The notes beneath the pieces are model-generated. The model was given only the letters and a program-made list of their open reading frames with translations, did no database searches and was not told the origin of the DNA. This document shows positions 3,992 through 34,638 of a stretch of 39,924 bases of DNA, piece by piece. The stretch is taken from the IMG/VR virus record IMGVR_UViG_2778261064_000020, positions 1-39,924 of that record; one strand, 5' to 3'. The first letter of the stretch is position 1. The number at the start of each line of letters is the position of its first letter. The DNA is from a virus. Its lineage: Duplodnaviria; Heunggongvirae; Uroviricota; Caudoviricetes. The position numbers and the translations under genes were made by a program.

Positions 3992-4464
3992 TTGTTGCCT
4001 CCTTCACGTAGCTCGGCGGCAAAAGCTACTGCGTGATCATGATGTTCAAGTGTGTATGCACACTCCGCAAACATCTCCACCCCCTGCGCACGTACTTCAG
4101 CCAGGAATGCGTCGGTGGCCGGGGTTTTGATTTCGTTAAGTGCATCACTGAATCCACCTCTCTCCATACCTAGCTCTGCTTCGTAATCGGCATCGAATGC
4201 AGCGTCTTTGCAGAACTTCTTCAGCCCCGCATTCTCCACCGCCAGCGCTGAAAACTTCTCGTGTGCCAACTTAACAGCCGAATAAGCCTGCTTAATTGAC
4301 TCAATCGCTCTCTGCTGGTCTTCGGACAGAGCCGAAATCTTGGCCTCCGCTTCAGCAAATTTACGCACCAGATATTCAGCGTTTGTTTCGTTGACCTTTA
4401 AATCTCGTGGGATGCATTTGCCTTTCAGAAAACCATCCATCTCAATTAGTGTCATTTGTTTCAT
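3988..4464 (-). CDS. Hypothetical phage early protein (possibly Ea22-related)
   Basis: 158-aa ORF with coiled-coil-like N-terminus; overlaps neighbouring genes by ATGA-type junctions. Confidence 0.55.
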
Positions 4465-32888: not shown

Positions 32889-33374
32889 CTACCTGATATT
32901 ACTGCTACTGTTGCATGTTACCGTGTTTCCAAATCCTGAATTGCAGTTTGTATATGTGTCAACGCGTGTTGGGTAAGGTTGAGTTATAACAGGCTGGCGC
33001 GCTTTTTGCTCGATCGCTTGCATTGTGTTTACAGCCTGATAATTCAATAAAGCCTGCTGGAATGCTTGGCTTTGTGCTATTTGTTGTGCTTGTTCTTGGC
33101 TTTGTAATTGAACATAAAGATTCTGAAGTTCAAGTCTTGCCTGTGTGTCACTTATCTTGCCTTCATCGACACCTTGCCCGAGCATCTTCGCAGCAAGGAC
33201 ATACAGCTTAGGTGTTGGTGCTGATGCCATGCGAGAGTCGTTCTTCAAGCTGGCATCAAGGCAATTAGCCATATCGCTAAGCTTTGGATAGCGTTGCTCG
33301 CAACTTGCCTGATAGTCGCTTACTTTTGCGCACCCAGCCAGCAGAAGCGGGATAATTAACAGTGATTTTTTCAT
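32889..33374 (-). CDS. Lipoprotein of unknown function (moron in the sieA slot)
   Basis: Start at MKKSLLIIPLLLAGC with AAGGAGAG ribosome-binding site; signal peptide plus lipobox LLAGC; Gln-rich helical middle; Cys-containing C-terminus. Confidence 0.6.
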   Translation of the reverse strand: MKKSLLIIPLLLAGCAKVSDYQASCEQRYPKLSDMANCLDASLKNDSRMASAPTPKLYVLAAKMLGQGVDEGKISDTQARLELQNLYVQLQSQEQAQQIAQSQAFQQALLNYQAVNTMQAIEQKARQPVITQPYPTRVDTYTNCNSGFGNTVTCNSSSNIR

Positions 33375-33408
33375 ATAATTAACTCTCCTTAGTTTTGCGC
33401 AGGATACC

Positions 33409-33774
33409 ATGAAAAAAGTTAACATTGGAAACGTACCAAAGATGCTCGTACCGCTCTTTGAGAGCGGTACAATTGTGTTTTGTAGAGACTTTCCAGAATG
33501 GCAACGCCTGCATCAAAAACTTGGCGTTGACGTGCATGACTCGGACGCCAACGGAGCGTCTCATACAATGAGTAGCGAGAATGGTGTTTTGCATGTGATA
33601 GGCGTGTTCAATGGCAAACTATCTACTATTGCCCATGAGTGCGCTCACATGGCATTCGATATCTGCTCAAGGGTAGGTGTTGATGTTGAACCAGGAAGAG
33701 CCAACGAGACTTACTGCTACTTAATGAGCAGGCTTGTTGAGTTCTGCGAGCGACATATCAAAAAGCCGGAGTGA
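33409..33774 (+). CDS. Small HExxH-motif protein, putative Zn-metallopeptidase-like
   Basis: 121 aa; IAHECAHMAFD contains HExxH with a Glu 19 residues downstream (gluzincin-like spacing); AGGA ribosome-binding site; divergent from the lipoprotein gene with only 34 nt between start codons. Confidence 0.5.
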   Translation: MKKVNIGNVPKMLVPLFESGTIVFCRDFPEWQRLHQKLGVDVHDSDANGASHTMSSENGVLHVIGVFNGKLSTIAHECAHMAFDICSRVGVDVEPGRANETYCYLMSRLVEFCERHIKKPE

Positions 33775-33787
33775 CCCGGCTTGATTA

Positions 33788-33967
33788 TTACTTTTTGCTG
33801 TCTGGAGTTCGCTTATCCAATACCCAGCCATGACCTGGCTTTGTTGTTGGTGGAAGCCTTTCGTTGTCCTTGACGGTGGCAAAATTGTCTTTCTTACCGC
33901 CGCGTGGGCCAACTTCTTGGTATATTCCGCCGTTTTTCCCTGTGTTTTCACCTGGTTTTTTCGCCAT
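33788..33967 (-). CDS. Small hypothetical protein (59 aa), possibly YjzC-like
   Basis: MAKKPGENTGKNGGIYQEVGPRGGKKDNFATVKDNERLPPTTKPGHGW...; GAGGT ribosome-binding site; convergent with the HExxH gene. Family assignment is tentative. Confidence 0.45.
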   Translation of the reverse strand: MAKKPGENTGKNGGIYQEVGPRGGKKDNFATVKDNERLPPTTKPGHGWVLDKRTPDSKK

Positions 33968-34066
33968 GATATACCTCAACATACACCCGCTATTGGGCGA
34001 TTAAATATTGATCTCATTTTATAAGTAGTCAATATGGCCCAGGTAAATGCAAAAATTAACTCACCG

Positions 34067-34318
34067 TCAGGTGGTTTTTTTGTACAAATCCTTCAGCGTA
34101 TCAAACACCATCTTCTTAACAAGATCTGACTGCTCATCAGCGAGTCGTTCTGCATCGTCACGATATCCAGTCACAGGCGATGGTTTTGATAGAGCATCTT
34201 GGACGATTTGTAACAACTCGGAGTTCATTGATCTCCCATTCGCCTCCGCCCTGAATTTTAATTTCTCCCTTACTTCCATAGGCATACGGAAGTTAAAGTG
34301 CGGATCATCTCTAGCCAT
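34067..34318 (-). CDS. mnt: Mnt repressor (ribbon-helix-helix, immI)
   Basis: 83 aa MARDDPHFNFRMPMEVREKLKFRAEANGRSMNSELLQIVQDALSKPSPVTGYR..., P22 Mnt. Confidence 0.9.
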   Translation of the reverse strand: MARDDPHFNFRMPMEVREKLKFRAEANGRSMNSELLQIVQDALSKPSPVTGYRDDAERLADEQSDLVKKMVFDTLKDLYKKTT

Positions 34319-34570: not shown

Positions 34571-34638
34571 AGTTGAAGCCCCAACTGCTGGAACAGTCAG
34601 GGCTTCGGTTGTCAGTAAATCCGTGGAGAAAAACCAAC

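Follow-up and report, generated by a model that had tools for sequence, protein, structure and literature searches.

orf59a of a P22-like Escherichia coli prophage: a conserved small gene on the margin of the YjzC-like family, with a convergent HExxH gene beside it

Does the short open reading frame (ORF) between gene 16 and mnt of a P22-like prophage encode a protein, and what might such a protein do? These questions were addressed in a window of 39,924 nucleotides (IMG/VR record IMGVR_UViG_2778261064_000020), by which we mean the whole stretch of DNA that was analysed. The window represents a P22-like prophage of E. coli; its segment 32600-34400 was found to be 100% identical to a prophage of E. 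coli strain 41, and its segment 33381-34400 is 97.7% identical at the nucleotide level to phage P22. The genes around the ORF follow the P22-type layout, with the ejection-protein genes 20 and 16, Mnt, Arc, sar, Ant and the tailspike gene. Mnt of the window contains the Arc and Repressor_Mnt domains of Pfam, and the sar antisense RNA was recognised as Rfam RF00262 with 92 bits. The Rfam scan gave no family match at the region of the ORF itself.

Reading frame and identity of the 59-codon gene

The ORF is located on the minus strand at 33788-33967, starts with an ATG at 33967 and has 59 codons, with the translation MAKKPGENTGKNGGIYQEVGPRGGKKDNFATVKDNERLPPTTKPGHGWVLDKRTPDSKK. Of the 59 residues of its 6.4-kDa product, 10 are Lys and 9 are Gly; the product has a pI of 9.9 and a GRAVY of -1.43, making it strongly hydrophilic, and no signal-peptide-like hydrophobic N-terminus was seen in its sequence. 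The AF2 model (pLDDT 85.9) consists of a three-stranded beta-sheet, and based on the alignment and the model the conserved motifs GPRGG and LPPTT are found in exposed loops. The protein is predicted to be cytoplasmic and basic, with the three-stranded beta-sheet as its fold. A Shine-Dalgarno sequence, GAGGT, was read from the sequence at 33973-33977 on the minus strand, 5 nt before the ATG, and GGAG/GAGG-type sites were found at the equivalent place in homologous loci. An upstream ATG at 33982, giving a 64-aa version of the protein, was rejected because the N-termini of the homologues align on M-x-K-K-P-G. Exactly the 59-aa CDS is annotated by PGAP and in the curated P22 record.

The length of such an ORF is by itself uninformative, since ORFs of 30 aa or longer are common here, 72 of them overlapping 7 kb of the window. 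The protein search, in turn, gave 110 homologue clusters, nearly all of them 59-61 aa long; they span Enterobacterales, alpha- and beta-proteobacteria and other groups. In total 80 related loci with 45-80% identity were detected in a scan of one genome per species, and the protein matched PHROG 3202 with E = 7.3e-31. In pairwise comparisons of 52 loci with at least 60% identity, the nucleotide divergence at codon positions 1, 2 and 3 was 0.256, 0.233 and 0.639, respectively, a pattern that indicates purifying selection in this frame.

The first-pass annotation had described a 59-aa Gly/Lys-rich ORF with a good GAGGT ribosome-binding site and had pointed to an alternative frame overlapping it, naming conservation of that frame across homologous loci as the outcome that would speak against the 59-aa gene. 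The overlap was confirmed: an ORF of 76 aa is located at 33721-33951 on the minus strand, in the +1 frame relative to the 59-codon gene, and it is open in the window. It would be the conserved product if the 59-codon frame were not, or the region could be non-coding altogether, but we regard both possibilities as refuted. The alternative frame contains at least one stop in 63 out of 81 homologous loci, the ORF runs through a terminator into the neighbouring gene, neither Pfam nor Rfam gave a match for it or the region, and the excess of third-position divergence sits in the frame of the 59 codons. Homologues, selection and existing annotation agree that the ORF described earlier is a real gene, and we consider its identity and genuine coding status to be nearly certain.

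The gene is in fact already known, being annotated as orf59a in P22 and as HkcD in HK620, without a function. The copy in the window is 98% identical to both at the amino acid level and 97.7% identical at the nucleotide level; it differs from the P22 protein in one residue (H46 in the window, N in P22). It lies between gene 16 and mnt with flanks as in P22, as expected of a member of this orthologue group, and shares with P22 orf59a and HK620 HkcD (PHROG 3202) the position between an hkcC-type ORF and mnt or an mnt remnant. In the curated P22 records orf59a is found between mnt and the annotated mnt terminator, with the product given as 'unknown'. In the HK620 record HkcD is a misc_feature and the adjacent HExxH ORF is called 'hkcC'. 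HK620 has lost mnt, arc and ant by deletion and has kept the orf59a homologue. We refer to the gene as orf59a. As an old annotated ORF of a model phage it is an ordinary finding, and what is new concerns its context.

A literature search on orf59a gave a passing mention only, in a study of P22 SieA (bioRxiv 10.1101/2023.08.15.553423). In that study sieA, orf59a and mnt on a high-copy plasmid gave P22 resistance and were tolerated in Salmonella, and SieA alone was sufficient for the SieA exclusion of P22 (bioRxiv 10.1101/2023.08.15.553423). Because SieA alone suffices, orf59a is dispensable for this exclusion. The plasmid fragment with sieA, orf59a and mnt presumably carried hkcC too.

Cassette layout and the convergent HExxH gene

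Next to the coding sequence several elements were predicted that together would make orf59a an independent transcription unit. With a consensus scan a sigma-70-like promoter, TTGACT-17 nt-AATATT, was found at 34004-34032 on the minus strand, in the gap that separates the end of mnt from the start codon of orf59a, with 9 of 12 consensus matches. RNA folding gave a small hairpin, CGCCC-AATAGC-GGGTG, at 33984-33999 on the same strand, where the orf59a mRNA is predicted to begin. We compared these elements with the upstream regions of orf59a-type genes in 12 loci on unrelated prophage or genomic backbones. A similar TTGAnn-16/19 nt-(T)AATATT-like site was picked in 8 of them, its -10 element standing a near-constant 36-40 nt before the ATG, and in 9 of the 12 a 5' hairpin of about 4-8 bp starts no more than about 7 nt away from the -10 element. 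The stems vary among the loci (CGCCC/GGGTG, GCTC/GAGC, CTGC/GCAG), with the position and an AAT-containing loop being kept. As some of these stems resemble CTG-N8-CAG, a LexA box was considered by eye for the hairpin and rejected, the spacing being wrong and the pattern being absent in the window copy.

At the other end of the gene a GC-rich hairpin at 33763-33782, scoring on both strands, is a predicted bidirectional intrinsic terminator common to orf59a and the HExxH gene. It is annotated as 't mnt' in P22 and as 'bidirectional terminator tORF59A' in HK620, so that the three phages share this element beside orf59a.

Morons are promoter-gene-terminator inserts that are expressed from prophages, such as bor and lom of lambda. 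The orf59a gene resembles them in its promoter-like site and terminator, in its antisense orientation to lytic transcription, in its patchy presence among close relatives and in its varied insertion sites. Among 80 P22-like loci from IMG/VR, orf59a was replaced in 11 by an ORF encoding a 74-aa hydrophobic protein, with the breakpoint just beyond the terminator, and in Klebsiella-type siphovirus prophages it lies in antisense orientation with the tail genes on one side and the tape-measure gene on the other. Variable presence, a separate insertion site and the orientation against lytic operons were thus directly seen in the loci, whereas the promoter and the terminator were both seen by consensus scans only, recurring with the gene in other backbones. 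Unlike typical morons, orf59a has a recurrent convergent partner gene. We describe it as a self-contained moron cassette, largely predicted, composed of a promoter, a 5' hairpin, a strong ribosome-binding site, the ORF and a bidirectional terminator. In P22, sieA and mnt are expressed in the lysogen. Since these genes lie on the same strand as orf59a, and based on the cassette layout, orf59a is probably expressed from the prophage as well.

The convergent partner is located at 33409-33774 on the plus strand and encodes a protein of 121 aa with the pattern HExxH-19-E. It corresponds to hkcC of HK620, is annotated as a CDS by PGAP and belongs to PHROG 1365. A first search with hkcC gave only 32 close clusters, and with a profile search 578 representative relatives were found at E <1e-3, most of which stand alone and are 110-140 aa long. 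When 40 family members with 22-42% identity were aligned, H76, E77, H80 and E100 were the sole invariant columns. HExxH with a Glu 19 residues further on, all of them invariant, is a gluzincin-type zinc-site pattern, which suggests a metallopeptidase-like protein. No Pfam family matched hkcC. Weak matches were obtained to SprT-like proteins (7 of the 40 members, best E = 0.018) and, in PDB, to the metalloprotease myroilysin (E = 0.019), hhalign against CapP-like M78 proteins aligned the motif region only, and the fold searches were uninformative. A literature search on hkcC returned unrelated matches only.

The stop codons of hkcC (33774) and orf59a (33788) are 13 bp apart, and the convergence of the two genes, which had been proposed from the ORF list, is confirmed by these coordinates and by the terminator between them. 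In all 85 loci that have both genes they were found to be convergent, with the aligned segments 19-43 bp apart. These loci include 11 divergent ones from at least six distinct prophage contexts; such contexts were found in Proteus, Xenorhabdus, Pasteurellaceae and Klebsiella and on several metagenomic contigs. The identities of the two genes to the window pair drop together, from 63%/80% to 43%/55%. The viral-contig scan for hkcC in IMG/VR returned only P22-like copies that were 98-100% identical; it adds no diversity and serves for the slot statistics. In every context examined hkcC runs in the same direction as the flanking lytic genes, late or early, and orf59a opposes them.

The linkage has clear limits. 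The 11 P22-like loci in which orf59a was replaced retain hkcC at 98-100% identity, more distant hkcC relatives (36-44% identity) have no orf59a-type neighbour, and in at least 77 of the 80 species loci the orf59a relative is found without hkcC. The partner relation with the HExxH gene suggested in the first-pass annotation stands therefore in part only: the constant convergence and the joint fall of identities support it, but the relation is not obligate in either direction. Nor do the two genes form a toxin-antitoxin or effector-immunity pair of the co-transcribed and strictly co-occurring kind, as they are convergent with a terminator between them and each of them occurs alone.

YjzC-like relatives and possible functions

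A resemblance of the 59-aa protein to YjzC-like small proteins had also been noticed from the sequence, and at the family level it was upheld. YjzC (PF14168) was the sole Pfam match of orf59a (E = 1.3e-3, 19.4 bits, which does not reach the gathering cut-off of 25 bits), with residues 4-49 aligned to positions 8-54 of the 55 in the HMM. The family was matched at E <=0.01 by 19 of 29 aligned homologues, with 4e-10 as the best value, and the cut-off was passed by P0082 (68% identical, 25.9 bits) and P0098 (59% identical, 29.2 bits). For comparison, the protein of Clostridium phage phiCT9441A that is annotated by NCBI as YjzC family scored 48.7 bits. Columns common to orf59a and the PF14168-positive homologues P0098-P0109 are P5, G6, G14, Y16, E18, G20, P21, R22, G23, G24, T31 and P39-T41. 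Like the family, including gp43 of phiCT9441A, orf59a is a single small domain in the range of 55-65 aa that covers nearly the whole model and has the pattern G-x-Y-x-E-x-G ... PPT ... W. The YjzC gene of phiCT9441A is similarly placed, antisense within the head-gene cluster of a temperate phage. In contrast to the rest of the family, orf59a belongs to a distinct and highly conserved branch, with 63-80% identity across alpha-, beta- and gamma-proteobacteria. As orf59a is itself below the cut-off and close homologues pass it, we place it in a conserved branch of proteobacterial proteins that borders the YjzC-like family, without counting it as a member that reaches the threshold, as judged by profile and motif comparison. 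A PDB sequence search with the family profile gave no match and thus no solved YjzC structure, NCBIfam and PADLOC contained no model matching orf59a, and a literature search on YjzC gave only a mention of Rv1954A and list entries.

The neighbours of orf59a relatives were clustered in the 80 species genomes. XRE-HTH and Peptidase_M78 genes, split or fused, were found within 3 kb in 32 of the 80 loci, and in 24 of them they are divergent from the small gene within 700 bp. By PADLOC these neighbours were called capP (1e-18 to 1e-59), capH (2.7e-23) or RmrA-like fusions, and the intergenic regions between the regulators and the small genes contain inverted repeats of the kind bound by HTH repressors. 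A DUF3892 gene lies between regulator and small gene in 6/80 loci. Lau et al. have shown that CapP is a metallopeptidase which is activated by DNA damage and has the repressor CapH as its cleavage substrate; the CapH/CapP genes lie upstream of a diverse set of cargo operons, DUF3892 operons among them, in the opposite orientation (bioRxiv 10.1101/2022.04.27.489752). Neither 'YjzC' nor 'PF14168' was matched in the text of that preprint (bioRxiv 10.1101/2022.04.27.489752). The relatives of orf59a thus resemble CapH/CapP cargo (and that of the related ImmR/ImmA and DdrO/IrrE) in being divergent from capH/capP-like genes, sometimes right after DUF3892. The window is different: capH and capP are absent, the upstream regulator is the RHH repressor gene mnt, and orf59a has its own promoter-like site.

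The ATPase IetA and the subtilase IetS of the IetAS defence system (7.9e-127 and E = 0, respectively) were found directly upstream on the same strand in 8/80 loci, with the small gene 14-235 bp behind the called IetS ORF; this arrangement, too, is absent from the window. Type I restriction-modification and E1-like (ThiF) genes recur near the relatives as well, and 40/80 chromosomal loci have no recurrent neighbour among the classes scored. In Mycobacterium tuberculosis the YjzC-like gene Rv1954A is the head of a HigB-HigA-SecB-like chaperone operon (PMC3912914). In gene arrangement Rv1954A is like the proteobacterial genes, being a small YjzC-like gene that is joined to a conflict module, here under the XRE-type repressor HigA (PMC3912914), but it shares an operon with a toxin-antitoxin-chaperone set and shows no HExxH convergence. 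Based on these neighbourhoods a role of orf59a in defence or stress is plausible. At several chromosomal loci no divergently transcribed cargo other than the small gene is apparent, which would make the small gene an output of the switch rather than a mere regulator of it. The contextual novelty lies here and in the conserved convergent partner, which has a metallopeptidase signature outside Pfam families: relatives of a P22 gene are recurrently found beside CapH/CapP DNA-damage switches and IetAS operons.

Taken as a whole, the locus is best explained by a real YjzC-like moron gene for a conflict or stress factor made by the prophage, with hkcC as its counterpart, to which we give a probability of roughly 0.5. 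Its coding part is firm, as described above, and the functional part is a tentative model that we hold to be doubtful. According to this model orf59a would be made from the prophage, like sieA and mnt on the same strand in P22, and its product would be an accessory conflict or stress factor. The product probably acts by binding a partner, because it has no enzymatic features. The chromosomal relatives would be cargo controlled by repressor/protease switches of the CapH/CapP type, which respond to DNA damage, or would close IetAS defence operons as their last gene. HkcC would be a minimal HExxH...E metallopeptidase-like protein, a lytic-phase counterpart that processes or neutralises the orf59a protein. 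In a wider and unlikely version, the YjzC-like branch would be a widespread, unrecognised output of conflict systems, its small proteins being either switched on via CapH/CapP when DNA is damaged or added to IetAS; the pair carried by temperate phages would then be a two-part module in which the small protein is produced in the lysogen and lytic HkcC removes it, so that phage growth is unblocked.

The same neighbourhoods could be read with the peptidases in the leading part. Each of the three neighbour classes that recur contributes a peptidase or a protein resembling one (M78 CapP, S8 IetS and HExxH...E HkcC), and a tiny, non-enzymatic protein with conserved exposed loops could be a regulator, inhibitor or decoy substrate of the adjacent HkcC, IetS or CapP and no effector itself. 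We consider this improbable, as half of the chromosomal loci are without a protease neighbour, adjacency to CapP is generic given the many unrelated cargo operons that CapH/CapP regulates, and a sole-cargo locus makes little sense for a pure CapP inhibitor. It is also quite improbable that the orf59a protein is a toxin with HkcC as its dedicated neutraliser in an addiction or abortive-infection module. The tight convergent linkage, the co-divergence across prophage backbones and the relative in a TA-type operon of M. tuberculosis (PMC3912914) would fit such a pair, but the genes are separate convergent transcription units rather than an operon, hkcC persists where orf59a has been replaced, the many species loci without hkcC give no sign of another fixed partner, and Salmonella tolerated sieA, orf59a and mnt at high copy number on a plasmid, though with hkcC presumably on the fragment.

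That orf59a is the distal gene of the mnt transcript, tuning the Mnt/Arc/Ant circuit, is very unlikely in our judgement. In loci of Proteus and Pasteurellaceae an Mnt-like RHH gene immediately precedes the small gene on its strand, and as the mnt terminator annotated in P22 follows orf59a, transcripts from Pmnt would include the gene. However, HK620 retains the gene without mnt, arc and ant, the Klebsiella-type prophages have no RHH gene near it, relatives are widespread in non-phage chromosomal loci, and a conserved promoter-like site of its own is predicted for orf59a. The remaining alternative, an anti-defence role, would make the phage copy a hijacked host regulator that blunts IetAS or CapH/CapP-controlled immunity. 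Phages are known to capture host immune regulators, and homologues of orf59a are embedded in defence loci; with the antisense orientation and the moron architecture pointing to expression from the prophage and not in early infection, this too is a remote prospect.

If the contexts hold up, the 59-residue protein of P22 would be an easy entry to small cargo proteins in immunity and stress. P22 is among the best-developed phage genetic systems.

The neighbouring sieA slot

The gene on the far side of hkcC, at 32889-33374 on the minus strand (ORF and PGAP CDS), encodes a lipoprotein with the lipobox LLAGC and lies in the slot taken by sieA in P22 and by hkcB in HK620; in this respect the window prophage differs from P22. 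The first-pass annotation had joined it with the HExxH gene and the 59-aa gene into a three-gene accessory island, which does not hold: the region is a mosaic of cassettes, and the lipoprotein gene is, by the locus comparison, an independently exchanged one outside the orf59a unit. Homology to P22 starts at 33381 of the window, 7 bp upstream of the lipoprotein start codon, and because it begins there the stretch that in P22 is annotated as the sieA promoter has been retained while the gene was exchanged. The lipoprotein gene was found in only four phage records. In the 80 IMG/VR loci the slot contained the lipoprotein gene in 17, SieA in 13 and HkcB in 8, with none of these in 42.

Chromosomal and phage relatives of the orf59a product

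Orf59a (33788-33967, minus strand) encodes a 59-aa YjzC-like small protein, some of whose chromosomal relatives were found in defence loci. In loci of the IetAS system, which consists of the ATPase IetA and the subtilase IetS, a YjzC-like small gene closely follows IetS in the same orientation, at about 4001-4180 of the compared loci (L024, L033, L058, L059, L069, L070, L071 and L077). These loci come from very different phyla, with representatives in Nitrosospira, Thiodiazotropha, Planctomycetota and Acidimicrobiales, and some IetAS systems may thus include the small gene as a third component that has gone unrecognised. In two loci linked to the DNA-damage switch CapH/CapP, a gene for a DUF6791 + ThiF (E1-like) protein was detected downstream of the small gene on the same strand, with one ORF in between (L027, 3322-4503; L052, about 560 bp past the small gene).

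In Brochothrix phage NF5, tblastn also gave a YjzC-like match (E = 5e-4; L086, 2711-2848, plus strand). The match lies on the strand opposite to the annotated gp50; either gp50 may have been annotated on the wrong strand, or the match may be due to chance.

The HExxH protein family

The hkcC-type gene (33409-33774, plus strand), convergent with orf59a, belongs to a large family that has no Pfam match and comprises 578 representatives, for the most part 110-140 aa in length, in which the only invariant residues are the H, E, H and E of an HExxH-19-E pattern. The family, most of whose members occur in phage contexts, appears to be a minimal metallopeptidase-like one that has not been described before. 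No zincin was among the fold-search results for the AF2 model of the hkcC-type protein. On one metagenomic contig (L167) a gene carrying a PhageMetallopep domain (Pfam PF18894; 1330-1968, plus strand) comes after the hkcC/YjzC pair, which thus adjoins a second metallopeptidase-type gene.

Gene replacement at orf59a and in the sieA slot

An ORF for a strongly hydrophobic 74-aa product substitutes for orf59a in 11 of the 80 P22-like viral contigs (L091, 4380-4604, minus strand; also L089, L128, L132, L134, L136, L145, L150, L151, L157 and L166). The replacement begins just past the terminator shared with the hkcC-type gene, and beyond the 74-aa ORF come more small genes and an Mnt-like gene of a different kind.

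The place of sieA is taken by a gene for a 161-aa lipoprotein (32889-33374, minus strand; lipobox LLAGC), which was assigned to PHROG 6067 (labelled as unknown function), had no Pfam match and was present in only four phage records. Since P22 homology picks up again 7 bp ahead of the start codon of this gene, the sequence annotated in P22 as the sieA promoter (upstream sequence 33381-33440) seems to have been retained and the cargo exchanged. This arrangement suggests that the lipoprotein may be expressed in the lysogen and possibly be of the exclusion type.

RNA elements and terminators

A short hairpin was located where the orf59a mRNA is predicted to begin (33984-33999, minus strand) and at equivalent positions in seven further loci (L004, L006, L035, L041, L169, L171 and L174). 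Its stem sequence varies and its position and AAT-containing loop are constant; possible roles are those of an RNA-stability element and of an operator. An intact copy of sar, the antisense RNA of the P22 immI region, is present (34571-34638, minus strand; Rfam RF00262, 92.3 bits, full length). Another hairpin overlaps the mnt stop codon (34061-34074) and is followed by T7 on the plus strand, which makes it a good terminator for rightward transcription that arrives from the side of orf59a. The HK620 feature 'tMNT' seems to be the counterpart of this hairpin; the name 'mnt terminator' denotes different hairpins in the P22 and HK620 records.
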